IMG/VR virus record: IMGVR_UViG_3300042191_000068
Coordinates: 224 to 64,223 of that record
Reading direction: 5' to 3' (one strand)
DNA: 64,000 bases
Source: a virus
Taxonomy: Duplodnaviria > Caudoviricetes
Below the pieces are notes generated by a model. The model worked only from the letters and a program-made list of their open reading frames with translations, had not been told where the DNA came from and did no database searches. Positions 6,012 through 57,081 of the stretch are shown here, in pieces (position 1 is the first letter of the stretch; each line of letters begins with the position of its first letter). Both the position numbers and the translations under genes were made by a program.

Positions 6012-6083
6012 TTACTCGTCCATGCCTGATCCGATAATGAGAAAAGCGGCGACGAGTATAAGTAATAGGATTGCTGTGAACAT
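6012..6083 (-). CDS. Single-TM micropeptide (23 aa)
   Basis: MFTAILLLILVAAFLIIGSGMDE; SD GGAGG upstream. Confidence 0.5.
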   Translation of the reverse strand: MFTAILLLILVAAFLIIGSGMDE

Positions 6084-6089: not shown

Positions 6090-6398
6090 TCACCCCTCCT
6101 CAACTACAAAATTCTGTGCAACCGTTTCGGCGTCGATGTCGTGCCGCTCGCACCACCGCAGGGCTTCGTCCGTAGTCATGACGATAATGCCCTCGCCGCC
6201 TCCGGTCAGGTTGCCGCAAGCCCTCGCCCATCTGGACATCGGCCCGCCTTCGCCGGCGACGAAGAACGCACCCTTCTTGGTTTTATACAGTGTTTCGTCG
6301 CAGTGCCCGAAATCTCTCCGGCCCAGATTGTTCGATCACTCTGCAATGAATTCTGCGGTCTCTGTGTTGTAGGTTTTCCCGTCGATCACTTTTTTCAT
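6090..6398 (-). CDS. Phage early protein with in-frame TGA at codon 21 (recoded or pseudogene)
   Basis: MKKVIDGKTYNTETAEFIAE*SNNLGRRDFGHCDETLYKTKKGAFFVAGEGGPMSRWA...; strong SD AGGAGG; the frame stays open for 81 codons after the TGA (6338-6336). Confidence 0.8.
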
Positions 6399-6399
6399 T

Positions 6400-6612
6400 T
6401 TACTCCTCCTTTAGTTTTTCCTTTTGCGCTTTGCGCAACTCCCGGCCCAGGCCGATTAACGCGTACCGCATGTATACGGGCAGCGGTGACGCTCCCGTCT
6501 CCCACCGACACCACGACACTCGGGTTACACCGAGCAGCGAAGCTGCACTGGCTTGGCTTAGGCCGAAGTGTCGGCGGAAAGCACGTAAGTGCTTGGGAGT
6601 CATGTTTTGCAT
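6400..6612 (-). CDS. XRE-family HTH protein (70 aa)
   Basis: FRRHFGLSQASAASLLGVTRVSWCRWETG. Confidence 0.85.
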   Translation of the reverse strand: MQNMTPKHLRAFRRHFGLSQASAASLLGVTRVSWCRWETGASPLPVYMRYALIGLGRELRKAQKEKLKEE

Positions 6613-6634
6613 GTCATCTTTATTCCTCCCCCGA

Positions 6635-6901
6635 CTACTTGTTCAGGTCTATAAGCTCAATTTCGCCGCTTTCAATCTTCGCCTCAATCTCTTTTGTGGT
6701 CATCCGCAGAAAGATGTTGCGATATTTCGAAGTCGTCTTAGAGTAGTCCCACTTGTCGGCGTCGAGCTGGATCTTACCTTTATAAGGGCGAAACGCTACG
6801 ACAGTGGCGTACGATTGGAAGTAGACGCCTTCGTCGGTGTAGATTTCAAACTGATTGGCAATAGTGGTTCCTCTTGATGACTGCATATTTTGGACTTTCA
6901 T
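6635..6901 (-). CDS. Phage early hypothetical protein (88 aa)
   Basis: ANQFEI...YFQSY...WDYSKTTSKYRNIFL resembles a recurring phage early-gene family (recalled, not searched). Confidence 0.75.
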   Translation of the reverse strand: MKVQNMQSSRGTTIANQFEIYTDEGVYFQSYATVVAFRPYKGKIQLDADKWDYSKTTSKYRNIFLRMTTKEIEAKIESGEIELIDLNK

Positions 6902-7515
6902 TCTTCCCCCTCTTGGCCTTCGGCCGGATTTAATTTTCTTAATGTGTAAAGCACATAGGGAGGGATTTTTCTTCCTCCTGATTCCCACTGATACAACGCT
7001 GAAGACGAGATATTCAGTCTATCCGCAAGCCCCGACTTGCTCAGCTTCATCTTTGCTCGGATGGCTCGGAGATGCGCCGGAGTTACTACAGGCTCAGGCG
7101 TTCCATACGGTGGGATACTCATTTTCTCCGCCCAATCCAAAGCGCACCACTCGATCTGTGCAGGCACGGTCTCAGACCGCCCGGCCTCTGCGTTCTGCCA
7201 CGAGATAACAGAGACATTGGCTTGCCTGGCAAGATACTCAATACTGAGCCCTGTGCGTTGCCTGATCCATCGCAACTCGTTCCAGAACATGTGTCCAAGA
7301 TAAACGAGGCGCACACCCATTTCGGCGGCTCTAGCCTTCGCCTCTTCTTCAGTCTGCACAGGCGTAGGGAGGTAATCCAGGTTTTGTCGGTCCACTACCC
7401 GCCAGTAGACAACCTCCTTCAGGCAAGGAACCTCTGGACACTTCCAGCCTGGCCGCCTGCATTGATGATCCCTGTTACATGCTCTCGTGTCCTTAATAAT
7501 CCGTCCAGTCTTCAC
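6898..7515 (-). CDS. Protein with two XRE-type HTH domains (205 aa)
   Basis: RQRTGLSIEYLARQANVSVISWQNAEAG and RAKMKLSKSGLADRLNISSSALYQWESG. Confidence 0.8.
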   Translation of the reverse strand: MKTGRIIKDTRACNRDHQCRRPGWKCPEVPCLKEVVYWRVVDRQNLDYLPTPVQTEEEAKARAAEMGVRLVYLGHMFWNELRWIRQRTGLSIEYLARQANVSVISWQNAEAGRSETVPAQIEWCALDWAEKMSIPPYGTPEPVVTPAHLRAIRAKMKLSKSGLADRLNISSSALYQWESGGRKIPPYVLYTLRKLNPAEGQEGEE

Positions 7516-7548
7516 TATTCCCCCCTCCTCCTTTATTGGTATATCTCA

Positions 7549-7576
7549 ATCGTACTAAATACAGGTAAGAAGTCAA
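7549..7576 (-). promoter_or_regulatory. Sigma70-type promoter
   Basis: TTGACT-16 nt-TACGAT upstream of the double-HTH gene. Confidence 0.55.
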
Positions 7577-7980
7577 GGAAAAAGTATCATGTAGACGCTG
7601 ATTCTTAGTAAGTAATTGATTTTACCAAGTTACCTATTTAAGAGATTGATTTATTATATGTTTTGTATGGTTTTTGGAGAGCAGACCCAGATTTGTTCAA
7701 ATTATTGGTTTGTGTAATTCTGGGGTTTGGGTCTACTCTATCCAGTGTGGAGCGGTTTTTACACAAACCAATAAAGTGCATAGGAACTCTATCTCTCTAT
7801 ATATACTACTATATATATATCAATAATCCCTACGGTGGTTATTCAACAATTTCAAGCACTTCCACCTGGCGGCTTTTCCAGCCCGCCGCGTCAGCAGGTA
7901 TCAAACTCCCTCCAAACTGACAAAAACACCAAAAAAAGTTCAATGATTTCAAAATCGCATTTAAGCAAACCCTTACGCTA

Positions 7981-8274
7981 TGTATATTTTTGATACCGAC
8001 TTTTCGCGTTTTTCCGATTTTTGCCTCTCCGCCGATTGTTAGGCATTTGCGTCGCCGCCTCTCGCGGTGTGTATATTTTTGATACACCGATCAGGTGTTT
8101 TCTCAAAAATCGACTTTGTTGCAATGCAACAATCGTATGAGATGTGCTTGACACATTTTTAGTAACAGGTGATACTTCCTTTGTTTGTCTGTATAGTTTT
8201 GATACTCCGTAGGGTATCACTTGCTGCATGATACTTGTATCTTTGCGTTACCTTGCATAGTAACATCCTGATAC
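7981..8274. repeat. Cluster of GTAW-N7-WTAC inverted-repeat boxes in an AT-rich non-coding region
   Basis: TGTATATTTTTGATAC at 7981-7996 and 8070-8085 (identical), TGTATAGTTTTGATAC 8190-8205, GTATCTTTGCGTTAC 8237-8251, GTAACATCCTGATAC 8260-8274. Confidence 0.7.
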
Positions 8275-8298
8275 AAGGCCGGGATGTTTTCCGGCCTT
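8275..8298. terminator. Hairpin (terminator or processing site)
   Basis: AAGGCCGG-GATGTTTT-CCGGCCTT just downstream of 8311..8772. Confidence 0.5.
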
Positions 8299-8310
8299 TA
8301 GTGTGTATCA

Positions 8311-8772
8311 TTAATATACTAAGCCGAGGCTTTCGACTGCCGCTTTAAACTCTTGCATTAGGTCCGGCAACCGAGCGAGCAGGAGAGCGGGACTCTGTAA
8401 TTGCGCAAGTGTTGCTTCCGGCCAGACAGCAGTTGAACGGGCAAAGTCGATGTTCGGGCTTTCCGCTCTTGCGTGGTAAGTAGTATTTGCAAGGTAGTGC
8501 ATCGGCCCATCGGTGCTGCATAAGTGCCATTTTAGATATGGTGTCAACTCCGGGAAGAACCTCGCTACATCTTCGTGGAGCATCCCCCAACTGCATTCGT
8601 ACCAGCGATTGTTCTTTTTCTTCTCTGAGAGTGTCCCAGTGATAGAGAATGAGTTGTGACCATTTTCGCATTCGTCGTCATGTCGGATGGTTACGACAAG
8701 TTTTTCTCTGTCGATGACTTTGGTCATGACTTTCTTTTGATTTCTTACAAGCTTACTTTCTGGTAAGTTCAT
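8311..8772 (-). CDS. Phage early hypothetical protein (153 aa)
   Basis: HDDECENGHNSFSITG...GMLHEDVARFFPEL...KWHLC; SD AAGGAG. Confidence 0.8.
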   Translation of the reverse strand: MNLPESKLVRNQKKVMTKVIDREKLVVTIRHDDECENGHNSFSITGTLSEKKKNNRWYECSWGMLHEDVARFFPELTPYLKWHLCSTDGPMHYLANTTYHARAESPNIDFARSTAVWPEATLAQLQSPALLLARLPDLMQEFKAAVESLGLVY

Positions 8773-8959
8773 GGTTTGTTTCTCCTTGTTCAAAGTTTAG
8801 CTCTCCCGAGCAAATAAAGTCTTCCCTTTCCTCGTCGTCCCGTTCCGGGATAAAAGGTGTCCCCCATTCCGGCAAATCGTCCAGGTTCTGGTCTTTCAGC
8901 CTTATTTGATATAAGGCCATGAACTTACGGAGTTTTTTCTTCTTTTCTTCTTTTGTCAT
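8753..8959 (-). CDS. Hypothetical protein (68 aa)
   Basis: SD GGGGA; within the operon. Confidence 0.6.
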   Translation of the reverse strand: MTKEEKKKKLRKFMALYQIRLKDQNLDDLPEWGTPFIPERDDEEREDFICSGELNFEQGETNHELTRK

Positions 8960-8970
8960 TGTCGGTCCCC

Positions 8971-9147
8971 CTATTTTTGAGCCTTAATAACATAGTGGCC
9001 ATCTCGGACAGCCTTGTTCATCTGGCGTTTTGTATAGTGCGCATGCACGCTAAACTCATGCGTATCTTTATGTAGCATCCCCCACACTATGCGAAACGGC
9101 AGGAGTGTTTTAATTAATACGATTTTATTTATTTGCTCTTTGGTCAT
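8971..9147 (-). CDS. Hypothetical protein (58 aa)
   Basis: Manual ORF MTKEQINKIVLIKTLLPFRIVWG...; SD AAGGAGG. Confidence 0.65.
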   Translation of the reverse strand: MTKEQINKIVLIKTLLPFRIVWGMLHKDTHEFSVHAHYTKRQMNKAVRDGHYVIKAQK

Positions 9148-9187
9148 TGTGTCATTCCTCCTTTAGATTTTTATCTTAACCACTCCA

Positions 9188-9218
9188 TAAAACCGGGATA
9201 TCTCAGTTCCCGGTTTTA
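9188..9218. terminator. Perfect 11-bp hairpin
   Basis: TAAAACCGGGA-9 nt-TCCCGGTTTTA. Confidence 0.6.
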
Positions 9219-9225
9219 GCAGGGG

Positions 9226-9423
9226 TCAAGCGACCTCATTAATAAAGTTTTTTCTTGTTTCCAACAAGGAAATCATATCGATATCGGACTTCCAAAGTCG
9301 TGCCGCCGATATCATGCTTTCTCGGTATACCTCCTCAGTCATTGCTTCCAGCAAGTAGAGGTGCTGAATGATGTTGAGATGATTCTGGTATTTGCTAAGA
9401 GCCAGCTCATGTAAGTGTTTCAT
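9226..9423 (-). CDS. Hypothetical protein (65 aa)
   Basis: ATGA-coupled to the upstream gene. Confidence 0.6.
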   Translation of the reverse strand: MKHLHELALSKYQNHLNIIQHLYLLEAMTEEVYRESMISAARLWKSDIDMISLLETRKNFINEVA

Positions 9424-9839
9424 AATTCCCCCCGTTCGATATAGCATCGATCAAAAACGCCTTCGTATGGGATGCCCTCCCAGTACGAAGAACCGAAGAT
9501 ATTTTCGTACCCGTAATAGGCTACGAGGTGTTGAATTGTTACTGGCAGTACCTCCTGCAGCGTCCACCAAAAATCTTCGTCCGGCTGATCATTGGCGCCG
9601 ACAAACGATTTGAACGAATCCCAATCCATCCAATCATATTCTTTCTTAAGATCAAGATTTTTATCGATAGTACAGAAATCGAACCGCACGTACTCGGTAT
9701 CGTCGCGCCGGATACCATAATAAAAGATGATATCTTCCGGCCCTTCGATCCAGGCAATGCCGTACTCTTTCAAAGACGTTTCAATATCGGCGTCAGGGCC
9801 TTCAATCTTGGTTATATCATATTCGTATCTTGTTTCCAT
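9420..9839 (-). CDS. Acidic hypothetical protein (139 aa)
   Basis: SD GAGGTG; D/E- and aromatic-rich. Confidence 0.75.
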   Translation of the reverse strand: METRYEYDITKIEGPDADIETSLKEYGIAWIEGPEDIIFYYGIRRDDTEYVRFDFCTIDKNLDLKKEYDWMDWDSFKSFVGANDQPDEDFWWTLQEVLPVTIQHLVAYYGYENIFGSSYWEGIPYEGVFDRCYIERGEL

Positions 9840-9842
9840 TTC

Positions 9843-10019
9843 TCACCTCACTTTTTTAGATTGAAACTTCCCATTAATTACGTGCTTGCTTACCAGCTTG
9901 CCACTTACAGGCCAGTAGCAAGCATAGGTTCTTCCAGAACCAAGGATCAATGCTTTCTCGGTTCTGCCGGTTATTTCGTATTGCCGGGAGTTAATTACTG
10001 CTACGCTTTGCATGTTCAT
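9843..10019 (-). CDS. Hypothetical protein (58 aa)
   Basis: Manual ORF MNMQSVAVINSRQYEITGRTEK...; ATGA overlap with 10016..10279. Confidence 0.6.
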   Translation of the reverse strand: MNMQSVAVINSRQYEITGRTEKALILGSGRTYACYWPVSGKLVSKHVINGKFQSKKVR

Positions 10020-10279
10020 TTGCTCATCTCCTTCATTATGGCCTTCAAGGCGCTGTCAATGTGTGCATCGTCGAGGTACACATATAAGGTATCACAAGCG
10101 TACTTGGTAAGTCCAGCAGCGTGAAACAAGTCCCACCGGAAGCGCTTATCTACGTCCTTAACACGAGGATCATTCTCCAGGTTACGCAGATATGCAGTTA
10201 CGTCAAGCGCTGGAGTACCAGCCAGCTTGTCTACCATTGCGCTCTTCATGTGCTCGTAATGTTCTTTCTTGATCTTCAT
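10016..10279 (-). CDS. Phage early protein (87 aa)
   Basis: RFRWDLF...LYVYLDDAHIDSALK pattern seen in early phage proteins; first gene after the promoter. Confidence 0.75.
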   Translation of the reverse strand: MKIKKEHYEHMKSAMVDKLAGTPALDVTAYLRNLENDPRVKDVDKRFRWDLFHAAGLTKYACDTLYVYLDDAHIDSALKAIMKEMSK

Positions 10280-10330
10280 GGTCTCACCCCTTGTCTGATT
10301 GTTGTTCGATTAACTACCATCCATATAAAC

Positions 10331-10359
10331 AAGATAACATTCTGTTATCTGATTGTCAA
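10331..10359 (-). promoter_or_regulatory. Sigma70-type extended -10 promoter for the leftward early operon
   Basis: TTGACA-17 nt-TATCTT with TGn; overlaps the palindrome GATAAC-N5-GTTATC. Confidence 0.75.
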
Positions 10360-10733
10360 ATATAAAATGCAACTCAATTAACATTTAATAACATAAAGAT
10401 GCACAATTACCGATTGTTGCTAGGTTGATCCAGGTTCAACGTTTTATTTGTGCGTGCTAATGCATTGACAGCACGTTAATCGGCTTACAGGCGGGCGCAC
10501 GTAATGTTGCATATGCACGTAATCAGCGGATTGACATTGTTTCGGGCTTGACCGGCTGCAAGCTGGGATCATAGGGGCGGGGTATGTCGTGTTCTGGGAG
10601 GTAGGCGCCTGGGGGGACGAGGCCCGAGGGGGTGCCGTCCTTTATCATGACTGCGTACCACTGAAACCCCAAAAAATCCAAAACCTGACAATGGAGCATT
10701 GAAAATTTTAAAATTTCTTGCCGATCTAAAATC

Positions 10734-10762
10734 TTGACAATTGAGTCACATAAAGATATAAT
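10734..10762 (+). promoter_or_regulatory. Perfect-consensus sigma70 promoter
   Basis: TTGACA(10734-39)-17 nt-TATAAT(10757-62), with an AT-rich upstream element. Confidence 0.9.
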
Positions 10763-10789
10763 AAGTGAAAATTCTAAGGAGGGGGAACT

Positions 10790-10981
10790 GTGGTAGGTAA
10801 ATTTATTTTTATCGTTAACTTAGTACTGGTGGTGCTCATATTACTGTCGGGCCCTATTCTTTTATCGAGGTACGTACATAGAAACGACGATATTTTAAAG
10901 CAACGGTGCGAAGAGGCTGGGGGGCTATTTATCAGGGCAAGCAGCCCATTGGTTGCGTGTGTTAAGGAAGTAAAGTTCTAA
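10790..10981 (+). CDS. Small membrane protein (63 aa)
   Basis: N-terminal TM helix; SD AAGGAGGGGG; GTG start. Confidence 0.7.
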   Translation: MVGKFIFIVNLVLVVLILLSGPILLSRYVHRNDDILKQRCEEAGGLFIRASSPLVACVKEVKF

Positions 10982-10991
10982 GGAGGAGGAG

Positions 10992-11342
10992 ATGCCAAAG
11001 GAATTACTTTTCTCAGTGACGAAGAAAGATCTTGAGATCGATTTCTTCAGTGGGACCGGCGCAGGAGGGCAGTATAGGAATAAGCACCAGAACTGTGTCC
11101 GTATTCGCCACAAGGATTCTGGAGCCTTCGCTACCGGGCAATCAAACCGGGAGAGGCCGGCAAACATCCAAGAGGCGTTTCGCAACTTGCTGGAGCACCC
11201 AAAGTTCAAGATATGGCAGTCGCAGAAGATATTGGAGTGCGTCTCCGGGGAGACGACCGCGCAGCGCGTGGAGAAAGCTCTGGCGCCGGAGAACTTGAAG
11301 GTTGAGGGGAAGGACGGAAACGGGAGATGGGAGGAATTATGA
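10992..11342 (+). CDS. Stand-alone peptide-chain-release-factor-like (GGQ) protein (116 aa)
   Basis: DLEIDFFSGTGAGGQYRNKHQNCVRIRH...SNRER.ANIQEAF matches the RF-1 catalytic domain; SD AGGAGG. Confidence 0.9.
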   Translation: MPKELLFSVTKKDLEIDFFSGTGAGGQYRNKHQNCVRIRHKDSGAFATGQSNRERPANIQEAFRNLLEHPKFKIWQSQKILECVSGETTAQRVEKALAPENLKVEGKDGNGRWEEL

Positions 11343-11605
11343 TAACTTTTTCGGATGAAGAACTGAGAGTGCTCGAACGTGTTGTAGGCGGAGACGCAAA
11401 AGCTGAGGTTGTGAAGGGGTACTTCTCAAACCTGCAGTTGCGTGTGACCTGCGAGTTCTCTGGACAAGGGTATGGGACGATGAAGACACTGTACCGAGAC
11501 TACCCGAACGACGCGAAGATGGACATAGTGCGATCGGTCGTTTACGACCTTGCTGAAATGCGAATCGCCGAGGAGTTCAAAGCCCTGGTTCCGGAGGAAC
11601 TATGA
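11339..11605 (+). CDS. Hypothetical protein (88 aa)
   Basis: ATGA coupling on both sides. Confidence 0.7.
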   Translation: MITFSDEELRVLERVVGGDAKAEVVKGYFSNLQLRVTCEFSGQGYGTMKTLYRDYPNDAKMDIVRSVVYDLAEMRIAEEFKALVPEEL

Positions 11606-12030
11606 ACTATAGAGAACTCTTGGATCGCAGCTACGAGCGAGAAAACGCTGAGGAAGAGCAATCGCGGTACGCATACCTGTCCGAGTACATTTTCATGTTC
11701 ACTACCTACGACTCAGAGATCTCAGACGAGTTCGGCCAGATAGCGGTCGCAGTTTGCGAAGCAGTAACAAACCGCACTACGTTCGAGTTCATAAAGGACC
11801 CAGAGAACTACCGGCGATTTATACTTCTCTGCAACACACCATTCTTCTCCGACCGCATTGAGTGGGGAACGTCTATACGGGGAGCGTGGTGGCGGTTCGA
11901 CATGATCAAGATGGATAGTTGTGGTTTATGGTCAGCGGACGGAGACCAGCTCGAAGAGATATCGTTTCCGCCGGAGGAGTGGGGTACGTTCATGCAGGAG
12001 GTAATCGCGTTTGCGAGAAACGAAACTTGA
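11602..12030 (+). CDS. Hypothetical protein (142 aa)
   Basis: SD GGAGG; ATGA coupling. Confidence 0.75.
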   Translation: MNYRELLDRSYERENAEEEQSRYAYLSEYIFMFTTYDSEISDEFGQIAVAVCEAVTNRTTFEFIKDPENYRRFILLCNTPFFSDRIEWGTSIRGAWWRFDMIKMDSCGLWSADGDQLEEISFPPEEWGTFMQEVIAFARNET

Positions 12031-12061
12031 CACCGAAGTAACGAAGTGATACAATCCAAGA

Positions 12062-12574
12062 ATGGAGACCCTAACTTTACTCAACGAAGACTTCTTCACC
12101 GATCTGGAGTTCGACGAGAACCAGGAGGAGGAGCCCGAGCTATCGCTCGTCCCTGCCAAGAGCAAGCCCCAATGGGTTCCTGCGGAACACCCACCAAACG
12201 TCAACCCCTGGGACCCGAGGCTCGTCCTCGACCTCGCTCTGGCGATCGAGGACACAGGTCCAATTCTGGACCGATATGACCTCCAACAGGAGGACTACGA
12301 CGCATTAATGCGCACTCCCTCCTTCAGACGGGACCTCGCCCTCACCATGAGGGAGGTAAGAGAGAACGGCTTGTCCTTCAGACATAAGGCCCGCGTCCAA
12401 GCGGAGAGCTACCTCGAAGTCCTCGACCAACTGGTTTACTCCCCGGCTACGCCGGCAAGCACGAGACTCGACGGGATAAAGCAGGCAGTTACGTGGGGCG
12501 ACCTAGCCCCTTCCGATAAGAAGGGCGACAGCCAGCAGCAGGCGCAAGCCATAAATATAAGTATTAACTTCTAA
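12062..12574 (+). CDS. Probable terminase small subunit
   Basis: Helical protein ending in INISINF, a C-terminal oligomerisation strand typical of TerS; located at the start of the late block. Confidence 0.6.
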   Translation: METLTLLNEDFFTDLEFDENQEEEPELSLVPAKSKPQWVPAEHPPNVNPWDPRLVLDLALAIEDTGPILDRYDLQQEDYDALMRTPSFRRDLALTMREVRENGLSFRHKARVQAESYLEVLDQLVYSPATPASTRLDGIKQAVTWGDLAPSDKKGDSQQQAQAINISINF

Positions 12575-12663
12575 TATCAAGTACTTACCTCACGCTCTCG
12601 CAGAACGACTCCTCCCTAGCCCATTAAGGGCGTTCAGAACTGATCATCTTTGTCAACATATTC

Positions 12664-12693
12664 TTGACAACCTACGTAACTTAGTGTTACACT
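12664..12693 (+). promoter_or_regulatory. Sigma70-type promoter overlapping a GTAAC-N5-GTTAC palindrome
   Basis: TTGACA-18 nt-TACACT with TGn; same architecture as 25654-25683. Confidence 0.75.
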
Positions 12694-12741
12694 CCTTGTA
12701 ATTAATCAGGCTCCGAGAGGAGCACATCATAAGGAGCTGAT

Positions 12742-13125
12742 ATGGCTGTTGGAACATGGGCAGACTTGGAGTATCGGAGAGGGCAGCTCGACGGCGAGAG
12801 CACAGAGCCCATAGGGCTTGTCAAAGAATTTACCGCGTCGGCAGACCTGGCTACCATCCCGACGGAAACAGTTCAGAATGAAACCGGGTTCCTGGTAGGC
12901 ATAGAGGTCGTAGCCGACGAGACTACCCCATTCGACTCTCTCGTTGTAAACTTCCAGTCGGTAGACGGCATCAGCCTGTATCTCGCTGCAGCGATAACTG
13001 CGTCCGACAGGATCGAAATTGATCCCGCCGTCCCCTTCGTCGGAGGCTACAAGCTCGCTTGTTCAAACAACACCACCAACTCCGCCAAGGCGAAGATTAT
13101 CTGCCTGGTCGTCTCAGGAGACTAA
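12742..13125 (+). CDS. Hypothetical, probably a virion beta-sandwich protein (127 aa)
   Basis: SD AAGGAG; beta-strand-rich. Confidence 0.75.
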   Translation: MAVGTWADLEYRRGQLDGESTEPIGLVKEFTASADLATIPTETVQNETGFLVGIEVVADETTPFDSLVVNFQSVDGISLYLAAAITASDRIEIDPAVPFVGGYKLACSNNTTNSAKAKIICLVVSGD

Positions 13126-13128
13126 GGT

Positions 13129-15663
13129 ATGAAGTACGTCAAGCGCAGGCTGCTGCGCAGCGGACTACCTCGCGAAAACCTCAGTTTTCTCGTCAGGAGG
13201 AACCCAGCTACCGGGTTGCTGATGCCGGATAGTATCGGCATATCTGCCAGAAGCAAAGCCGACAACAGCACCACCGCAACTTATTTTGTCCTGCCAAACA
13301 CCGACGCATCGAACCACGTCCGCTACAGTGCTATAAGCCTTGCGGATTGTGCTTTAGCTGGGGCCCCCGCGGCGTCGATCAATGCTCTGTTCACGGCTGG
13401 CGGGGCAGGGACGAAAATTGTTTTAGGTAGTGGCACGTATGGGGCTGCGGAGATGTCAGCCGGAACGAGCGGAGTCCGTATGGCTGCTGCCGATCAGTCT
13501 CTCATCGGTGTTCGTGGCGGCACTGTAATTCTTGGTGCCACCAACCTCAATGATAACACTGTATATGGTAGTGCAGCCGGGCATTTAATCCAAAACATCA
13601 GGCCCATCCGAGGCACAGGTGGCACTGCTGCTATCTACTCCCGCCCTGGAGCTGGAGGTGTTGGTATTGTAGATGGTTGCTATTTTGCCACACCTTGCCC
13701 TGGATACTACTTATACCAAGAAAATGGCACCATAAAGGTTCTGCGAAATACGTTTGTCGGGAGCGAAGGTTCATACGATGTTAGGTTCGCAGGTTCGGTG
13801 CTATTTGCGTTCAACACCGTGAAAAACAGTGCAAGTTCTGCGGCCACTCAACTATACCTGCAAGCCGCTGGTTCTACCTGTAGATTTTTTAGTAATCTTT
13901 TCAGCGGTCACGCTGGGCCATTGCTTGTATCTGCGGGGACACACACATCAGGAGTTGTGGATTTCTGCGGCAATATGGTCCTGCCTCCTGACTCCGCAAC
14001 AGGGCCACAGGGATTAAGCCTCAATGCTGCCATTACAGGCAGTGTCGATGGCAATTACATTGCAGCCAATCCACGTTTTGTGCAGGCCCCAACGTTCGGC
14101 GCGGCGCAGACAATCGGTACAAATCACTATTCAGATTTTCCCGGCATTACAGCAACCAAAACATCTGGCTATCTGACGTTTTCCATTGATGATTACAACG
14201 ACTCATCATACCACACCTGGGACTATATGTACGGTACTGATGGCACCGATGGGCTTGTCGCTCTGATGCAGTCGTACGGGGCTAAACTCGTTTGGTTTAT
14301 CAATACCAAATCTCTGGCTGAGATGCCTGATTACGCTACAAAAATAGCATGGTTTTTAGCTCAGGATAATATCGAGTGGGGTTGCCATACCGTCACGCAC
14401 TCCGACATGGCTTTCACGGGCAAAATTTGGGATGTGGTGAAAGGGGCTGAAACGGTGACGGTGGACAGGGCAGCGGACACCATAACCCTAAGCGGCGGCG
14501 GGGCGGTAACTGGATTCAGGGCAAAAACACTTGAGGCAATCCGCACTGAGTTAACCGCTCTCGGATGCACGATAACCCCTGTTGCAAATTACGACTCAGG
14601 TGTTGCCGGGACTCTCAGCCAGTACGTTAAAGGCGAGGCAATTGATAATGTCGCAGCGGGAACATCTCTGACATTACTCCGTGGCGATGATACTGAAGGA
14701 TATATCAAAGCGGAAATCTACGACTCCTTGGACGCGCTCGAAGCTCTTGTCGGCGTTGGGACTGTAAAAAGTTTTGCCTACCCGTTCGGCTCTGGACGGA
14801 CCGACGCATACCTCAAAGGCACGCTGCTGGCTGGCAGGAGTGGACAAATCACCAGTGCCAGGTCGGTAAATATTGACGGTAGTTCTCCTTGCAAAATTAA
14901 TGGCCTGGACAGGTATACCCTCGCTGCAACTACGGGGGCAAATCTCAAGACCAATGTTTCCCCCGGAGATACAGATGCGGACATCAAAGCTGGGATTCAT
15001 GGGCTATGTGCATATCTGGCTGAAAACGGGGGGTACAGCCATCTATACTGTCACAGTGCCAGTGATCTATCATTGCCCCAATGGAATCTTGTCCTGGCTG
15101 AGGCGTACAAATGGAGCGCTCATCTCCATATAGGCATGTCCGCTGCCGATGTGATGGATGATTTGTTGTCTATCGCAACCGATACCAATGGGATACTGGC
15201 TTATCAGTGGACGGATAATTCCAACTACAGACTGTTATCGACATCCTTCCTGAAAAATATTGGGGCAGCGCCTTTTATCGCTACAGACGGCGATCAGTAC
15301 GATTTGAACGGCAACATGGTTTATCATGCCGCCATGAATCGGCTGGTTTATCATGCTATTCCCGGTTTAAGTATCGGCGCGTATCAGTACGGAGGACCTG
15401 ATAAGGTTTATCATGGACTCACTGTTGCAAATGCTTGGGCGGCAATCCCTGAACTGTATGATGTGATCGGCCTGAACAACGCTGTCTACGCCGCCGATGG
15501 ATCGTCCGTGGCGTTTGATACTCCTGCGCTGGCTCTTGCCGCTCTCGCGTCTCTGGCTGACGATCAATACTTGTGGGGCGGGACCAAGGCGGCAGCACTT
15601 TTTAACATTGATATGACCGCCAAGGCAGGACCGATAAAGCGGTATGTCGGTGACACAGCGTGA
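13129..15663 (+). CDS. Tailspike-like protein: pectin-lyase-like beta-helix plus NodB-type polysaccharide deacetylase (844 aa)
   Basis: Repeating G/N-rich beta-helix N-terminal half; deacetylase motifs LTFSIDDY, GCHTVTH, FAYPFG, LYCH. Confidence 0.75.
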   Translation: MKYVKRRLLRSGLPRENLSFLVRRNPATGLLMPDSIGISARSKADNSTTATYFVLPNTDASNHVRYSAISLADCALAGAPAASINALFTAGGAGTKIVLGSGTYGAAEMSAGTSGVRMAAADQSLIGVRGGTVILGATNLNDNTVYGSAAGHLIQNIRPIRGTGGTAAIYSRPGAGGVGIVDGCYFATPCPGYYLYQENGTIKVLRNTFVGSEGSYDVRFAGSVLFAFNTVKNSASSAATQLYLQAAGSTCRFFSNLFSGHAGPLLVSAGTHTSGVVDFCGNMVLPPDSATGPQGLSLNAAITGSVDGNYIAANPRFVQAPTFGAAQTIGTNHYSDFPGITATKTSGYLTFSIDDYNDSSYHTWDYMYGTDGTDGLVALMQSYGAKLVWFINTKSLAEMPDYATKIAWFLAQDNIEWGCHTVTHSDMAFTGKIWDVVKGAETVTVDRAADTITLSGGGAVTGFRAKTLEAIRTELTALGCTITPVANYDSGVAGTLSQYVKGEAIDNVAAGTSLTLLRGDDTEGYIKAEIYDSLDALEALVGVGTVKSFAYPFGSGRTDAYLKGTLLAGRSGQITSARSVNIDGSSPCKINGLDRYTLAATTGANLKTNVSPGDTDADIKAGIHGLCAYLAENGGYSHLYCHSASDLSLPQWNLVLAEAYKWSAHLHIGMSAADVMDDLLSIATDTNGILAYQWTDNSNYRLLSTSFLKNIGAAPFIATDGDQYDLNGNMVYHAAMNRLVYHAIPGLSIGAYQYGGPDKVYHGLTVANAWAAIPELYDVIGLNNAVYAADGSSVAFDTPALALAALASLADDQYLWGGTKAAALFNIDMTAKAGPIKRYVGDTA

Positions 15664-15715
15664 CCGATATGAAACTACAATCTTTTTGGCTGACAAATTT
15701 TAGGAGTATAAAAAT

Positions 15716-15811
15716 ATGAAAATATACTTACTCGCAACAGCAACCCTGATCCTCTTTTTCTTCGCAGGGGTTGGCCTGTACTCAATGTTTCAAACGCTGA
15801 CATTTTATTGA
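15716..15811 (+). CDS. Single-TM micropeptide (31 aa)
   Basis: MKIYLLATATLILFFFAGVGLYSMFQTLTFY; SD AGGAG. Confidence 0.6.
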   Translation: MKIYLLATATLILFFFAGVGLYSMFQTLTFY

Positions 15812-15819
15812 GGTGACAA

Positions 15820-16569
15820 ATGAAAAAATTACTTCTTCCCCTTCTTCTGATTTTCGCACTGTCCGGGTGTTCTTCGAAATCTCCTGTCGAAATGGCGGCG
15901 GACGTCGGGGAATTTGCGCAAAGCGAGGCCATTACTACATCAGCGTGCTTCGAATATCTGAAGGTCCGCGACCAGCAGGAACTGGCCCTATACGAAGGCA
16001 TGGAGAGCGCAGACAAGGAGCGCGCACTCAGCACCAGAGCGATGAGCAAAATGGTCTCCGATCTTACCGGTAAGAGTCAGGACCTGTGTAAGCCTGGAAC
16101 AAACGTATGGGATGCGACAATTGCCTGGGCCGCCGAAAACGAGAAGACCAAGCGACAATACTCGACCGATCTCAAAAGCGTGGCGACCTTCGGTATTGTG
16201 ACGACAGGGGCCGTGAAACTTGTTGACTCCCTGGCCGGGGCCGTAGGTGACAAAATCAGCACTACCGGCGACAATTCCGGCGTGACGAAAACCACGACGA
16301 ATACGACCACCACGAATACCGCAGTTGCAGCAGACAAAAGCACAGCGACGAATAATGCTACCGCGGGTAGCAAGGAAGGGGAGACAGTGGCAACCGGCAA
16401 AACTCCGACCGCAGCACAGTGGGCCGACTGCACGACGGTTGCATCCGGAGCGGCCTCGAACTCCGAGATAAACGCCTGTCTGCAGCGTGATTACGGTATC
16501 AATTCGTCCGAATGCAACGGCGGAATCTGTATCGATGGTCAACCTTATAACGGCCCGGCGGTAAAATGA
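15820..16569 (+). CDS. Lipoprotein (249 aa)
   Basis: Signal peptide with lipobox LSGC; Thr-rich linker; C-terminal Cys-containing domain. Confidence 0.85.
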   Translation: MKKLLLPLLLIFALSGCSSKSPVEMAADVGEFAQSEAITTSACFEYLKVRDQQELALYEGMESADKERALSTRAMSKMVSDLTGKSQDLCKPGTNVWDATIAWAAENEKTKRQYSTDLKSVATFGIVTTGAVKLVDSLAGAVGDKISTTGDNSGVTKTTTNTTTTNTAVAADKSTATNNATAGSKEGETVATGKTPTAAQWADCTTVASGAASNSEINACLQRDYGINSSECNGGICIDGQPYNGPAVK

Positions 16570-16591
16570 TCACCATACTCAGTAGGCGAAC

Positions 16592-16783
16592 ATGAAAAAA
16601 GTGCAATGCGAGTGCGTAAAGTGCCAGCATAACGATTATGACGGAAAATCAGGGTGTGGGGTTTGCACCCTGGATGAAATCCAGCTCGATAAAAACGGAG
16701 TTTGCGCGGTTGTAGTAGGCCACATTTGTGGGGATATAATTTTAAAATGCAGAAACAAGGCCATGGCCGAAGTTGAAGAATGA
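16592..16783 (+). CDS. Small Cys-rich protein, DUF1540-like (63 aa)
   Basis: CECVKCQHN...C.VC.LDEIQLD..GVC. Confidence 0.6.
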   Translation: MKKVQCECVKCQHNDYDGKSGCGVCTLDEIQLDKNGVCAVVVGHICGDIILKCRNKAMAEVEE

Positions 16784-16813
16784 TCTACCTCAATAATCAA
16801 AGGAGCAATAAAA

Positions 16814-17029
16814 ATGTCATACTCACTCGTAACACCATGCTGTAATTACCCGTCCTCAACACCTGAAGGGCAGGGGGATTGTACCAAGAAAGACACATGC
16901 ACAGATCGCCATGTTTTGTACGGAGCCCTTGTCGCCATTCATGCAATGGCATACGGCACAGGCCATCTCGGGTCCGGCGAAATCACTCTGGAATGCAACA
17001 ACAAGACCGTGGCGAAAGCCGAGGAATGA
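16814..17029 (+). CDS. Small Cys-containing hypothetical protein (71 aa)
   Basis: SD AAAGGAG. Confidence 0.75.
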   Translation: MSYSLVTPCCNYPSSTPEGQGDCTKKDTCTDRHVLYGALVAIHAMAYGTGHLGSGEITLECNNKTVAKAEE

Positions 17030-17226
17030 TCTACTTAATCCTCGCAGCCATAACCGTCATCGGCGGCATATCCTACGCCGGTTGGCAACACGGCTACTGG
17101 CAGTGTCAGGTTGAGCAATACCTGCTTGGCGGCTTGGCGGCTTGTTACCTGCTGGCTGTTGCCGTAGGCAAGATATGCCGCAGGCTTTTTCCGGAGGACG
17201 AAGATGATGGTAGTAAAAGCGACTAA
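17026..17226 (+). CDS. Two-TM small membrane protein (66 aa)
   Basis: ATGA overlap; two hydrophobic segments. Confidence 0.65.
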   Translation: MIYLILAAITVIGGISYAGWQHGYWQCQVEQYLLGGLAACYLLAVAVGKICRRLFPEDEDDGSKSD

Positions 17227-17404
17227 GAAACCGAAATACATAGAGGTGAGACGGCAGGTAATTGAGGCGTACATCACCAGTTACCAATGCCCATCATGTA
17301 AAGTTATATTCGAAGGCGGCGGACCAGCGAGAAACGTAGTCAGGTTTAGGTGTAGTTGCGGCCAAGAACTTATCGTGAGGGAAGACGATGGTAGTAAATC
17401 CTGA
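17204..17404 (+). CDS. Zn-ribbon protein (66 aa)
   Basis: CPSC...CSCG. Confidence 0.7.
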   Translation: MMVVKATKKPKYIEVRRQVIEAYITSYQCPSCKVIFEGGGPARNVVRFRCSCGQELIVREDDGSKS

Positions 17405-17579
17405 ACCGATCCCAAGAGACGATGGTGGTACAGACTTCCGTATGTCTGAGTGTTCCGTCGCATGTTACGCGGTAAATGCTCAAGGAATGAGCGTCGAAAT
17501 ACCTTGTCCGTTTTTGAAGGTTGAAATCGGTGAGCCTCTTCGGTGCGGCGACCCTGCGATGAAGGAGATATTGGAATGA
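17388..17579 (+). CDS. Hypothetical protein (63 aa)
   Basis: Coupled ORF. Confidence 0.6.
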   Translation: MVVNPEPIPRDDGGTDFRMSECSVACYAVNAQGMSVEIPCPFLKVEIGEPLRCGDPAMKEILE

Positions 17580-17980
17580 TAAAAGTCGAGCAAAAAATAA
17601 ACATCGAGGTTGAAGGGCATAAGCTTGCAATCAGCCGGGAATCGGCAAAAGAGTTACATAAGCAACTTGGAAAATTGTTCGAGAGTAAGGAACGTAAGGA
17701 AAGTATTGAGGATTATATAAAGAAGCTCACACTGTTTAAGCCCCAACCTCTTTATGTTTCGCCTTATGTTCCGCCTCCAGTGTACGGCCCGGCAGAATCG
17801 ACAGACTTTCCATATGAAGTTACATGAGGGCTTGAGGAAACAAGAGCAGCTTCCCCTGGCTTGTTCAAAGTGTCTTGTGCATACGAAACAGTTGGCAAGT
17901 CCATTAGCGAGACTATTGGTAAGTCGGTTTGTGAACCGCTTGGAGAATCAATCTGCATCACTGAAGGCGAAAGTAGATGA
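17576..17980 (+). CDS. Hypothetical protein with in-frame TGA at codon 84 (134 aa if read through)
   Basis: After ...FPYEVT-TGA(17825-27) the frame continues for 50 codons, including 8-aa repeats ETVGKSIS/ETIGKSVC/EPLGESIC, and ends in an ATGA overlap with the next gene. Confidence 0.7.
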
Positions 17981-18129
17981 CAAGGTACCCTTGGTCCGAT
18001 CCAGAAGACAAAGTAAAGTCAGATTACTACCTCATCCCGAAAGATGTCAAAGCATTAATTATGGTCGGTGCGACATTCGAGCAGATAGGAAGATGGTTCA
18101 GAAGGATTTTCAAGAAGGATAAGAGATGA
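17977..18129 (+). CDS. Hypothetical protein with amphipathic basic C-terminus (50 aa)
   Basis: Manual ORF MTRYPWSDPEDK...GRWFRRIFKKDKR; ATGA overlaps at both ends. Confidence 0.65.
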   Translation: MTRYPWSDPEDKVKSDYYLIPKDVKALIMVGATFEQIGRWFRRIFKKDKR

Positions 18130-18398
18130 ATAAAATACTCGCAAAGATGGGCCTCATGTACCTTGCCAGCAAACTCGACGGCAAGAAAACCTATGTCGGC
18201 GCGGCTGTCCTCATGCTTCTCGGAACAGGGAAAATAATCGCCGGGCTTGTAGGCGTTATCGGCAACATGTACCCTGATGTCGGAGCTCCCGAGATTGACC
18301 TTGATGGATGTTACAACATGATACAGGCAGGCGTTGCGGCCTTCGGCGCAGGACTTGCTGCGATCGGGATCGGGCATAAGGTGGAGAAGACGAAATGA
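18126..18398 (+). CDS. Putative holin (90 aa)
   Basis: LDGKKTY N-terminal motif, two hydrophobic segments, GIGHK C-terminus; upstream of the endolysin. Confidence 0.65.
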   Translation: MNKILAKMGLMYLASKLDGKKTYVGAAVLMLLGTGKIIAGLVGVIGNMYPDVGAPEIDLDGCYNMIQAGVAAFGAGLAAIGIGHKVEKTK

Positions 18399-18718
18399 AG
18401 GATTTTTGCACCCTCAGCCCTGATCATCCATTCGGTTACGACATCTCTTTTTGATGCAGGCTACACGATGAGCGATACGAAGAGCAAACAATACCGAGAC
18501 TCGAAGCTGACCTCGAACTTAAATGGTGAGTCGCTCGCGTTGCCGGTCTGGAGATCGGTCAGAAATATTATGACGCAGTCAGATTGGCTGGCTGGTTTTT
18601 CTGGCGGAAAACGAAAATGTGGAGAACGCTAGATGGATATTATAAGAGAATGGTGGGCCGTTATTCTGGCGTTTCTCGGCGGGGCAATGTGGGTGGGAAA
18701 AATTCAGCGGGAAGTTGA
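18395..18718 (+). CDS. Phospholipase A2-like protein with two in-frame TGA codons (codons 20 and 45); candidate selenoprotein
   Basis: MKDFCTLSPDHPFGYDISF*CRLHDERYEEQTIPRLEADLELKW*VARVAGLEIGQKYYDAVRLAGWFFW; matches the CCxxHDxxY...AD..L..C pattern; SD GGAG and ATGA coupling to the holin. The C-terminal end is uncertain (86-nt overlap with the next gene). Confidence 0.8.
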
Positions 18719-18914
18719 AGACTTGAAGGCGGGGAAATTTGTTTCGAATGAGCGTTGCGGCGAACGCAGGCAAGAAATAAAAGACCTGACGGCCCTCCAG
18801 TTCGCATCTGGAAACGCACAATTTATCGAAATAAAAGCAATGGTGTCGAAACTCCAGGACAGCCATAATCAGCTTATCAAAGTCCTCATTGAGGACAGGA
18901 GGGATAACTCATGA
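18633..18914 (+). CDS. Single-TM coiled-coil protein, holin/antiholin-like (93 aa)
   Basis: N-terminal TM WWAVILAFLGGAMWVG followed by a coiled coil. Confidence 0.7.
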   Translation: MDIIREWWAVILAFLGGAMWVGKIQREVEDLKAGKFVSNERCGERRQEIKDLTALQFASGNAQFIEIKAMVSKLQDSHNQLIKVLIEDRRDNS

Positions 18915-19081
18915 GCACTGCAGAGCGTATCCAGGAGTTACTTGATTGCGCCGTTCGGGTGCCGGCGCGAGACGGAGCAGGCGTTATCACTCCTGCCGGA
19001 GTCGATGCTGCGATCGAGGTGAAGACCTTGCAACGGTGTTTGAAGATCGCTGCGGAGGAAGAGAGTGAAAGACTGGATTGA
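18911..19081 (+). CDS. Hypothetical protein (56 aa)
   Basis: Manual ORF MSTAERIQELLDC...; ATGA overlap. Confidence 0.6.
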   Translation: MSTAERIQELLDCAVRVPARDGAGVITPAGVDAAIEVKTLQRCLKIAAEEESERLD

Positions 19082-19535
19082 GCGATGCCTCGGGCACGAA
19101 GGCGCTTACTGGGACGACCCTGTCGGAGGGCCGACGAAGTACGGGATAAGCCAAAGGTCCTACCCAGACCTCGACATCGCGAGCCTCACAATTGACGATG
19201 CCAGAGCCATCTACCGGCGAGACTTCGTCAAGCCACTCAACCTGGATACTTACCCTCCCGGAGTCGCCTTCCAGTTGTTCGACTTCGCAGTAAATTCAGG
19301 ACCAAAGACCGCAATAAAGCAATTGCAGGAGGCTCTTGGGCTGAAGCCTGATGGAGTTGTCGGACCGAAGACCAAAGCAGCACTCGCCGGTAAAACTGAC
19401 TCTGATCTTGTCATGCTGGTCATTGCCGAACGTCTAGACTTCATGGCAAGTCTAAGGAACTTCATTCCGAACGCAAAAGGATGGGTTCGTAGGATGGCGG
19501 CGAACTTAAGGCATGGAGCCGAGGACACCGAATGA
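19065..19535 (+). CDS. Endolysin, glycoside hydrolase family 108
   Basis: HEGAYWDDPVGGPTKYGIS catalytic motif, FDFAVNSG, GWVRR C-terminus. Confidence 0.92.
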   Translation: MKDWIERCLGHEGAYWDDPVGGPTKYGISQRSYPDLDIASLTIDDARAIYRRDFVKPLNLDTYPPGVAFQLFDFAVNSGPKTAIKQLQEALGLKPDGVVGPKTKAALAGKTDSDLVMLVIAERLDFMASLRNFIPNAKGWVRRMAANLRHGAEDTE

Positions 19536-20479
19536 TGAGACAAACCTACCAAGGCAATACCGTTATCTTCGAGGATGAGTACTTCGTGCTGAACAGGTTC
19601 AGCGAGGGCGAGGGAACGCCCTGTTTCATCGTCCCGCCCTTCGCGGGCCGAGACGGCACCGTCACCCAGAACCTTATCAATAAGTGCGTTGAAGCGGGTC
19701 GCTCAACTTACGCCTACGAGTTGAAGTCGGCCACCCAAGAAACGAAGAATCTCAGTATCAACGGGCTGATCACAATCTTGGATGCTTGCTGCGACATGAT
19801 CTACGGTGAGACCGGAGAGCAGTCGGTAGACCTCATTGGTTGCTGCCAAGGTGGCTGGCTCGCCTCAATGTTCACCGCCCTACGCCCAGAGTGGGTCAAC
19901 CGCCTCGCCGTCTTCGCCGCGCCGATAAATACGCATTCCGGGAGCAAGAACCGAATCGAGGAGTATTGCGAGACCATCTCCCTGCCGGCGCACCGCCTGA
20001 TCGTCGGGCTGAACAACGGCGTTCAGCCAGGTATGGCCCAATGGCTCGCCTTCGCGGCGATGGCCCCGGAACAGATTTTCTTTGGGAGGTATCTCGACCT
20101 GCTGGCGCACATCGTCAGCGGACGAGATGCGGATATCGATAAATGGGAGAAACAGAATGGATGGTATGACAGCCCCAATGACTTGGCCGGTATATGGTTT
20201 CTCGACGCCCTCGAAAATCACTTTTGCAAGAACGCCCTCTACAACGGGGCCTGGGAGGTAGGAGGAAGTATTGTAGATCTTCGCAACGTCACTTGCCCGG
20301 TCTTCGTTTTCGCAGGCGAAGACGACGACATTACCTCCGTCGAACAAGCCCGAGGGCTGATCGACAAGGTCAGTTCAGAGTGGGACTTAGTCGTCTTTCC
20401 GAACTGTGGGCACACGAAATGCTTTACAGGGAGTAAAGAACTGGAACAGTTCGCGGAGTTGTTCTTCCAAGAGGAGTGA
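19532..20479 (+). CDS. Alpha/beta hydrolase of the PHA depolymerase/synthase (PhaZ/PhaC, DUF3141-like) type (315 aa)
   Basis: IVPPFAG; Cys-type lipase box LIGCCQGGW; AAPIN; GEDDDIT (Asp); GH (His). Confidence 0.8.
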   Translation: MMRQTYQGNTVIFEDEYFVLNRFSEGEGTPCFIVPPFAGRDGTVTQNLINKCVEAGRSTYAYELKSATQETKNLSINGLITILDACCDMIYGETGEQSVDLIGCCQGGWLASMFTALRPEWVNRLAVFAAPINTHSGSKNRIEEYCETISLPAHRLIVGLNNGVQPGMAQWLAFAAMAPEQIFFGRYLDLLAHIVSGRDADIDKWEKQNGWYDSPNDLAGIWFLDALENHFCKNALYNGAWEVGGSIVDLRNVTCPVFVFAGEDDDITSVEQARGLIDKVSSEWDLVVFPNCGHTKCFTGSKELEQFAELFFQEE

Positions 20480-56626: not shown

Positions 56627-56715
56627 TGGTGGGAAGCGATGGAATCGAACCACATGCCTGGAAGGAGCAGGGTTACAGTCTGCCGTCGGACCATCCGACC
56701 TTATTGACGCTTCCC
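56627..56715 (-). tRNA. tRNA-Tyr(GTA), atypical structure
   Basis: GCAGA-CTGTAAC-CCTGC anticodon arm, short variable stem, GGTTCGATTCC T-arm, acceptor GGGAAGCG/CGCTTCCC, ACCA end; abnormal D-region. Confidence 0.85.
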
Positions 56716-56722: not shown

Positions 56723-57039
56723 TTACGTTATGCTTAACTCGGCCACGACGCTCAGGTCGTTCTTGGTAGTAGGTACTCCAAGCATGGACAGCTTAGCCGC
56801 GAACGCGTCGGCGTTCGCCCATATCTCCATCAGAGTATCTCCAGGGACGAGCGCTACTACATATGTGTCGCCGGTACAAGCGTTGCCAGCCGTCTCATAC
56901 TCTAGGAGCAACTCCTCCAGGCACTCGCCGAAGTCCCCCCAGCGTTCTGCAGGTAAACCACCGAACTTTTTATGGTTTCGATATTTTCCTCGGTGAGTAC
57001 GACGCCTATCCCGCCTATGGCGGTGTATTCTACACTCAT
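56723..57039 (-). pseudogene. Hypothetical protein split by a -1 frameshift near 56967-56971
   Basis: The SD-bearing frame MSVEYTAIGGIGVVLTEENIETIK stops at 56904-56902; the -1 frame KFGGLPAERWGDFGECLEELLLEYETAGN... runs to 56723. Confidence 0.65.
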
Positions 57040-57081
57040 CATGTCCTCCGTTTCGTCGAAAGACGAAATCTCATTTTCTTA

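Follow-up and report, generated by a model that had tools for sequence, protein, structure and literature searches.

To our knowledge, the selenoproteins known from viruses all belong to viruses of eukaryotes and none to a bacteriophage; a search of the full-text literature for a report of a phage selenoprotein found none and surfaced only papers on eukaryotic viruses. Stop-codon recoding in phages, as described so far, is genome-wide and driven by tRNAs (bioRxiv 10.1101/2021.08.26.457843; PMC9523058), i.e., hundreds of codons are affected, the recoded codon is avoided for termination, and the phages bring their own suppressor tRNAs and release factors. For selenocysteine (Sec), the standard criterion that is independent of a selenocysteine insertion sequence (SECIS) is the pairing of a TGA in one homologue with Cys in another (PMC12013277). 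The DNA considered here is a stretch of 64,000 nucleotides from a phage of the Caudoviricetes (the window; positions 224 to 64,223 of IMG/VR record IMGVR_UViG_3300042191_000068), in which four in-frame TGAs interrupt three small genes that we call A, B and C. On either side of each of the four, the sequence is homologous to proteins that have no interruption. Our main subject is gene C, a homologue of phospholipase A2 (PLA2) in the lysis cassette, and for it and gene B the sequence comparisons are best read as recoding by host factors, of either a selenocysteine or a cysteine type.

TGA codons at cysteine columns of genes C and B

The match of phrog_6098 to gene C (E 4e-13, residues 1-76) spans both of its TGAs, and an exhaustive HMMER search was needed to gather its 58 homologues; neither a word-indexed protein search nor tblastn against the GenBank phages gave a match. 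Across the aligned family, codons 20 and 45 change together, with Cys at both in 31 sequences, at neither in 19 and a Cys/Asp combination in one (Fisher p = 4e-13), a covariation that is the signature of a putative disulfide pair. Family members without the Cys20-Cys45 pair have no TGA. Two database proteins of 43-44 amino acids stop just before codon 45, and each was encountered in identical form in several contigs from different samples (7 for one, 3 for the other); in their DNA a TGA stands at that codon and in-frame homology follows it.

The relatives of gene C were taken from viral and metagenome contigs, and the 12 distinct sequences (the window included) hold 24 in-frame TGAs, with no TAA and no TAG. 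All 24 are confined to three columns, Cys20, Cys45 and Cys21, the last being the second, almost invariant Cys of CCxxHD. If U stands for TGA and C for a Cys codon, codons 20-21-45 read U-C-U in the window, L003 and L021; U-U-U in L012 (80% identical to the window), L004 and L015; C-U-U in L023, L018 and L027; C-C-U in L006 and L009; and C-U-? in L117, which is partial. Near relatives thus differ in which of the adjacent Cys codons is the TGA (L003 versus L023, and the window versus L012 and L117), so TGA and TGY must have been swapped repeatedly, as in Sec/Cys families.

Comparison with related phages had been proposed in an earlier note made from the window alone, which saw in the four stops a genome-level pattern. 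The recurrence in gene C was clear, but the genome-level description was not supported, since in the related genomes G001 and G002 only the PLA2 gene is interrupted. The pattern belongs to a gene family more than to a whole genome. The relatives share only the lysis module with the window, no match to its portal- or terminase-size protein being found in their genomes. A candidate in G001 with two TGAs (Gp37/Gp68-like) was rejected, as it proved to be two adjacent genes.

Between family members, the proportion of non-synonymous differences (pN) was 0.02-0.45 in all three segments of gene C, including the one after the last TGA, while synonymous sites were saturated for most pairs. For codons 46-72, pN was 0.05-0.45 against a synonymous proportion (pS) of 0.33-0.85, and pS was higher further upstream, a difference that extra constraint from an RNA fold would be expected to produce. 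Purifying selection, therefore, acts downstream of every gene C TGA. Because the TGAs recur across saturated synonymous divergence with low pN, these alignments exclude pseudogenisation and assembly error for gene C, and its TGAs are almost certainly translated. Conservation on both sides of a UGA that recurs in orthologues was found for gene C, and alignment of the UGA with Cys in homologues for its codons 20 and 45 and for gene B, but not for gene A.

The assignment of gene C to the microbial PLA2s (PF09056) draws on a family-profile match, the catalytic residues and the fold. A profile of 50 family sequences matched the solved PLA2s 4aup, 7ygk, 8k1w and 1faz with E 6e-13 to 3e-10; the single sequence reached 18.5 bits against PF09056, under the cut-off of 29.4. 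The residues H24, D25, Y28 and D39 (the catalytic His-Asp dyad, the Tyr and the distal Asp) are invariant across 55 family sequences. An AF2 model (pLDDT 89.7) is a three-helix bundle for which Foldseek placed PLA2s at ranks 1-3 (TM-score 0.61-0.67, probability 0.97-1.0, with E only 0.03-0.4). The product lacks a signal peptide, and Cys bridges presumably hold its fold together. Homology ends near position 18625 with no stop nearby, and 30 further codons overlap the next gene (18633-18914) in another frame; this tail (18633-18718) is retained in L012, and other relatives stop at codons 81-95.

Gene B, of an unknown family with a Cys-rich tail, has only two homologues, and both have Cys at the position of its TGA. 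The read-through product is covered in full (100%) by one of them, P0061 (113 amino acids, E 3e-17). At this site the P0061 codon is TGC in L117, a contig related in the same lysis region that also carries a member of the gene C family. Gene B is absent from the close relative L012, no TGA-bearing orthologue was found, and the viral contig search yielded no gene B relatives.

Selenocysteine weighed against its rivals

Evidence on the mode of decoding came from the RNA that follows TGA45. There, a hairpin with a stem of 5-7 bp starts 12-15 nt after the TGA and has a loop of 4-7 nt with a G among its first two bases; a fixed rule detects it in 10 of the 11 TGA forms, and a relaxed rule in 11 of 11. 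The loops are UGGA, AGGA, CGGGAU, AGUU, AGUUCUA, CGGGA and CGUGA, and the stems are of six different sequences, i.e., compensatory changes have occurred. Among family members with Cys or another residue at codon 45, only 1 of 9 has such a hairpin (Fisher p = 9e-4, a value that overstates independence because the TGA forms are one clade). As background, the rule is satisfied after 11% of the TGA trinucleotides of the whole window, and after 5 of its 50 terminal TGAs. A conserved G in the apical loop is given as a feature of predicted bacterial SECIS elements (PMC2398784, Fig. 7 legend), and both the position and the loop G of the TGA45 hairpin agree with such descriptions (PMC2398784; PMC12013277). 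RNAalifold on a MAFFT alignment of the region returned only a weak consensus of 4 pairs, owing to the different registers in which the hairpins sit, and single-sequence folds after each TGA (z-scores -0.9 to +1.1) are uninformative on their own.

The only canonical tRNA gene that ARAGORN and Rfam detected in the window was a tRNA-Pro(UGG), and no UCA tRNA was among their results; no tRNA genes at all were found in G001 (complete, 58.8 kb), G002 or G003. As there is no phage-borne suppressor tRNA, decoding must fall to the host and be site-specific. A tRNA-like gene missed by ARAGORN lies at 56632-56714 on the minus strand, with an 8-bp acceptor stem, a 4-bp T-stem, a 6-bp D-stem with a 3-nt loop, a long variable arm and an encoded CCA. 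Although it scores 22.8 bits against the Rfam tRNA-Sec model (below the gathering threshold), it was rejected as a UGA decoder, since its 7-nt anticodon loop, CUGUAAC, presents the anticodon GUA. It resembles the (8/4) allo-tRNAs of bacteria and phages (PMC5389517); candidate identities are a tRNA-Tyr and a missense tRNA charged with Ser. In the early region, 10992-11342 (plus strand) encodes a stand-alone RF-1/GGQ domain protein of 116 amino acids (PF00472, 3.6e-12) that is ArfB/PrfH-like, and the same genome has an RtcB gene at 63204-63992; a link of the RF-1/GGQ protein to UGA decoding is possible.

The reading we favour, and consider reasonably probable on the sequence comparisons, is that the TGAs of genes B and C are sense codons at Cys positions that the host decodes, most likely as Sec by means of SelB, tRNA-Sec and a SECIS within the open reading frame (ORF). 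Sec would then replace one or both members of the structural Cys20-Cys45 bridge, and in relatives Cys21 as well. Diselenide or selenylsulfide cross-links could then form in this signal-less enzyme, whether in a reducing cytoplasm or in an anoxic envelope, and would persist under reducing conditions. Inefficient decoding of two or three UGAs would also throttle a membrane-damaging enzyme, with the output of gene C tied to the selenium supply and to a Sec-competent host. We infer the identity of the residue, the bridge chemistry and the throttle from these comparisons; a conditional switch, in which selenium, host or stage would license the proteins, was suggested in the earlier note and is plausible.

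Several points weigh against Sec, besides the single clade from which the hairpin evidence derives. The main gap is the absent signal after TGA20/21, where no conserved hairpin occurs in any gene C lineage examined and RNAalifold found no structure between there and TGA45; a weak hairpin at the RLEADL codons is also present when both positions are Cys, and is hence non-specific. No fold that satisfies the hairpin rule follows the gene B TGA. The SelB model from E. coli requires a separate SECIS close to each UGA, and the tandem TGA-TGA of L012, L004 and L015 is awkward for it. Two or three Sec insertions within 80 codons would give a very low yield. The indications of a host are also loose: no prophage copies of gene C were found across 185,579 species genomes, and the relatives of the endolysin, which point only loosely to Proteobacteria, amount to five proteobacterial or misbinned matches in metagenome-assembled genomes (44-56% identity), none with a PLA2 gene beside it. 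[quoted passage not shown] Strong lineage-specific hairpins lie between the upstream TGAs and TGA45 in L004 (10079-10120, plus strand, between TGA21 and TGA45, with a 13-bp stem) and in L003 (10096-10132, plus strand, 37 nt), and these might bring the TGA45 hairpin spatially nearer to the upstream UGAs.

A bolder extension of the Sec reading, which we put forward tentatively and with more doubt than confidence, is that these lysis-cassette phospholipases would be multi-Sec proteins (up to three Sec in 80 residues), with Sec-Sec or Sec-Cys bridges in place of structural disulfides, which would let a signal-less enzyme be cross-linked in a reducing, anoxic host, and with at least two UGAs decoded without a canonical adjacent SECIS. 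Were it true, it would imply a long-range or shared SECIS, or a new mode of bacterial Sec insertion, and lysis that depends on selenium and a Sec-competent host.

It is the lack of a SECIS-like fold after TGA20/21 and the gene B TGA that leaves some probability to the insertion of Cys and to leaky read-through. In the first case, UGA would be read as Cys by a host (8/4) tRNA-Cys(UCA) that mimics tRNA-Sec, with a dedicated synthetase and a SelB-like factor. Such a system predicts the pattern that was seen, namely TGA only at Cys columns, free exchange of TGA with TGY and a SelB-type hairpin. Systems of this type are proposed for some delta-proteobacteria; tRNAs of the kind have been described, and in E. 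coli they put Cys in at UGA (PMC5389517). These tRNAs are, however, rare and their natural role is unproven, and plain Cys offers no evident reason for TGA45 to have been kept clade-wide rather than drifting back to TGY. We consider Cys insertion unlikely.

Slightly less likely again is SECIS-independent leaky termination, or a general opal suppressor of the host, whereby the TGAs would be attenuators of a lysis enzyme and any residue would be tolerated. The affected genes are indeed small accessory or lysis genes, local structure is lacking after TGA20/21 and the gene B TGA, and the gene A TGA is at a Trp position, which suits near-cognate read-through of UGA in bacteria, where Trp is what is usually inserted. 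An attenuator could sit anywhere, yet 24 of 24 family TGAs and that of gene B fall on Cys columns. In addition, both members of the bridge are hit together where Trp would break the fold, the TGA45 hairpin covaries, and TGA-ended genes show no excess of backup stops within 10 codons (23/50, compared to 9/29 for TAA and 7/12 for TAG).

Drift, with the interrupted genes being pseudogenes of dispensable function, was the alternative raised in the earlier note, and as an account of the whole it is very improbable. Every gap longer than 90 nt was inspected in six frames, all stops with an in-frame extension of more than 30 codons were listed, and a gap-filling read-through scan of the whole window was run for each stop type. 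The internal stops found number exactly four, all TGA, although the scan relied on a home-made gene caller plus homology for part of the genome and a short interrupted gene could be overlooked. The stops at 6336, 17825, 18452 and 18527 were as the earlier note had located them, and its observation that TAA and TAG interruptions are lacking was upheld by the whole-window scan. A codon-score read-through scan had no resolving power for short genes, and a homology-spanning scan was dominated by off-frame matches to L012. The remaining in-frame ORF pairs joined at a stop (3 TGA, 8 TAA, 2 TAG) restart with ATG or GTG and a ribosome-binding site within a few codons, and are therefore ordinary gene boundaries. 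Under a mutational null with the phage's own codon usage, a count also suggested in the earlier note, 21-25% of random nonsense substitutions yield TGA, so that P(4/4 TGA) = 0.002-0.004, and the probability of at least three of four hits on Cys codons is ~2e-4. Drift is rejected for genes B and C, on the latter value and, in gene C, on the recurrence of the TGA despite saturated synonymous divergence, on pN far below pS downstream and on the freedom from frameshifts and other stops.

Gene A is where drift fits. The earlier note had placed all four stops at Cys- or Trp-like positions; this was correct as to Cys for genes B and C, while the gene A TGA, at a variable Trp/Tyr site, is a separate matter. 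Gene A has 193 homologues, the closest 72% identical. In the protein set the residues at its TGA column are W (38), Y (21), F (4), D (5) and others, with no Cys; 80 viral loci gave W (30), Y (20), F (8) and a single C. Neither TGA nor any other stop was found in gene A across those 80 loci, and the TGA, unique among 80+78 relatives, is one transition from the TGG of the closest of them. The hairpin after it, likened to that of TGA45, is real and satisfies the same rule, but is not specific: it occurs in 11 of 80 non-TGA homologues (14%), in several from the same conserved codons, and is thus weak evidence. The gene A TGA is probably a separate one-step TGG>TGA lesion in an otherwise intact gene, best read as either very recent or tolerated through leaky decoding, and for this gene alone we lean narrowly towards drift or a tolerated leaky stop. 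Immediately after its terminal TGA, in the same frame, is a 23-codon ORF (6012-6083, minus strand) that encodes a hydrophobic helix and has a strong Shine-Dalgarno of its own. It may be a micro-gene; alternatively, read-through into it would extend the gene A product by a membrane anchor.

Of genome-wide reassignment little need be said. Stop usage among the 91 called genes is TGA 50, TAA 29 and TAG 12, ATGA overlaps are common, and in-frame TGA is absent from the long genes, including one of 2534 amino acids; with TGA as the main true stop, four in-frame occurrences and no UCA tRNA, reassignment of the code 4 or 25 type is excluded in this phage, as the earlier note had argued from its intact long genes and ordinary TGA stops. 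Phages are known in which stop-codon recoding is concentrated in late and lysis genes (bioRxiv 10.1101/2021.08.26.457843), but a genome-wide alternative code of the phage or its host (table 4, 25 or TGA=Cys), or a late suppressor tRNA of the phage, as in recoded gut phages, has a negligible chance of being correct, as TGA is also a normal stop in G001-G003 (47 of 94 long ORFs in G001), neither they nor the window have a suppressor tRNA, and Cys positions do not fit Trp or Gly.

The lysis cassette and other features of the genome

The phage genome is complete, at 64,223 bp with a 127-bp terminal repeat, and the window is nearly all of it. It encodes a family-A DNA polymerase, a DUF927 primase-like protein, an SNF2 helicase, ThyX, RtcB and a major capsid protein, and no sign of an integrase was seen among the genes annotated in the window. 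The features discussed are collected in Table 1.

Table 1. Positions of the interrupted genes, their TGAs and hairpins, and adjoining lysis genes in the window
Feature	Position	Strand	Remarks
Gene C	18395..18718	+	mini PLA2 homologue, ~80 aa (phrog_6098; microbial group XIII/XIV PLA2-like); TGA at codons 20, 45
Gene C TGA, codon 20	18452..18454	+	first Cys of CCxxHD; TGA also in L003, L012, L004, L015, L021
Gene C TGA, codon 45	18527..18529	+	partner Cys of covarying pair; TGA in all 11 clade sequences covering the site
SECIS-like hairpin	18542..18559	+	GCCGGUC-UGGA-GAUCGGU; 12 nt after TGA45
Gene B	17576..17979	+	133 codons; in-frame TGA 17825-17827; terminal TGA overlaps next ATG
Gene A	6090..6398	-	early region, 102 codons; TGA at codon 21 (plus-strand 6336-6338)
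Gene A hairpin	6307..6321	-	CCGGAG-AGA-UUUCGG; 14 nt after TGA
Holin-like membrane protein	18126..18398	+	ATGA-coupled to gene C; adjoins gene C family in L003, L117
GH108 endolysin + peptidoglycan-binding domain	19065..19535	+	PF05838 3.8e-16; phrog_315 1e-40
Alpha/beta-hydrolase	19532..20479	+	esterase or polyhydroxybutyrate (PHB)-depolymerase-like; PF06850, PF12697; coupled to endolysin

The link to lysis genes made in the earlier note is sound, as gene C sits between the holin-like gene and those for the GH108 endolysin and the alpha/beta-hydrolase; in L034, the neighbour of the gene C family member is a Pfam Phage_holin_6_1 gene, followed by a lysozyme. Upstream, a stretch of 137 nt (17024-17160, plus strand) is 90% identical to L003 6083-6219, although the two phages are otherwise only ~67-72% similar. 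It was rejected as an RNA or tRNA, as it codes for the core of a 66-residue holin-like protein with two transmembrane segments (17026-17226), and the identity suggests either a recent module exchange or unusually strong constraint.

Elsewhere, ~800 nt of low GC content (7516-8310; ~44%) next to a cI-like helix-turn-helix gene (6898-7515, minus strand) show no convincing ORF in either direction; a possible role is that of an origin or a regulatory region. On the minus strand, the region 56723-57042 contains a pair of short ORFs, 56902-57042 and 56723-56911, which lie in different frames with a 10-nt overlap; together they could be the single frameshifted gene proposed in the earlier note.

Comparison with known systems

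If the residue is Sec, gene C would represent the first selenoprotein family described in bacteriophages, and a rare natural instance in which Sec serves to cross-link a structure and not to catalyse redox reactions. Lysis by the phage, and hence host range, would depend on the Sec machinery and selenium supply of the host. The UGAs without a recognisable SECIS, including the tandem UGA-UGA, bear on the diversity of bacterial Sec-insertion signals. There is also a practical consequence, in that standard gene callers truncate or miss such genes, the 43-44-residue database "proteins" being N-terminal halves, and phage annotation pipelines may conceal more cases of TGA-interrupted genes.

As an enzyme, gene C is closest to the secreted microbial PLA2s of groups XIII/XIV (PF09056; 4aup, 1faz, 7ygk), with which it shares the CxxHDxxY catalytic helix, the Asp of the second helix and the three-helix core. 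It differs from them in being ~40 residues shorter, in lacking a signal peptide and in residing in phage lysis cassettes, and the Cys20-Cys45 pair is an extra of the gene C family that the solved microbial PLA2s do not have.

As to decoding, the likeness is greatest to bacterial selenoprotein genes such as E. coli fdhF: an in-frame UGA aligned to Cys, Sec- and Cys-type forms within one family, a small G-loop hairpin at a fixed short distance after the UGA (here TGA45), and UGA as a stop elsewhere. Unlike them, gene C is borne by a virus that has no Sec machinery of its own, its proposed Sec sites are structural-bridge Cys residues of a hydrolase rather than a redox-active site, and within 80 codons its family carries as many as three UGAs, of which an adjacent pair has no recognisable SECIS. 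Two Sec placed to bond each other have a precedent in the diselenide of SelL (PMC1955791, as cited in PMC2398784), but SelL is a eukaryotic redox protein of the thioredoxin fold with an adjacent UxxU, while the gene C partners are 25 residues apart on two PLA2 helices and their bond is deduced from Cys covariation only. The (8/4) tRNA-Cys(UCA) of delta-proteobacteria (PMC5389517) would likewise read UGA at Cys positions in a SelB-like manner; it inserts Cys rather than Sec, and none was found in these phages. With the selenoproteins of eukaryotic viruses (the poxvirus glutathione-peroxidase homologues; PMC6769590), gene C would share the reliance of a virus gene on Sec insertion by the host, but those are captured host redox enzymes with a SECIS in the 3' untranslated region. 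Finally, like the stop-codon-recoded phages (TAG=Gln, TGA=Trp; bioRxiv 10.1101/2021.08.26.457843; PMC9523058), this phage appears to read a stop as sense in late or lysis genes, possibly for lysis timing, but the in-frame TGAs number four here, TGA is the main stop and there is no suppressor tRNA.

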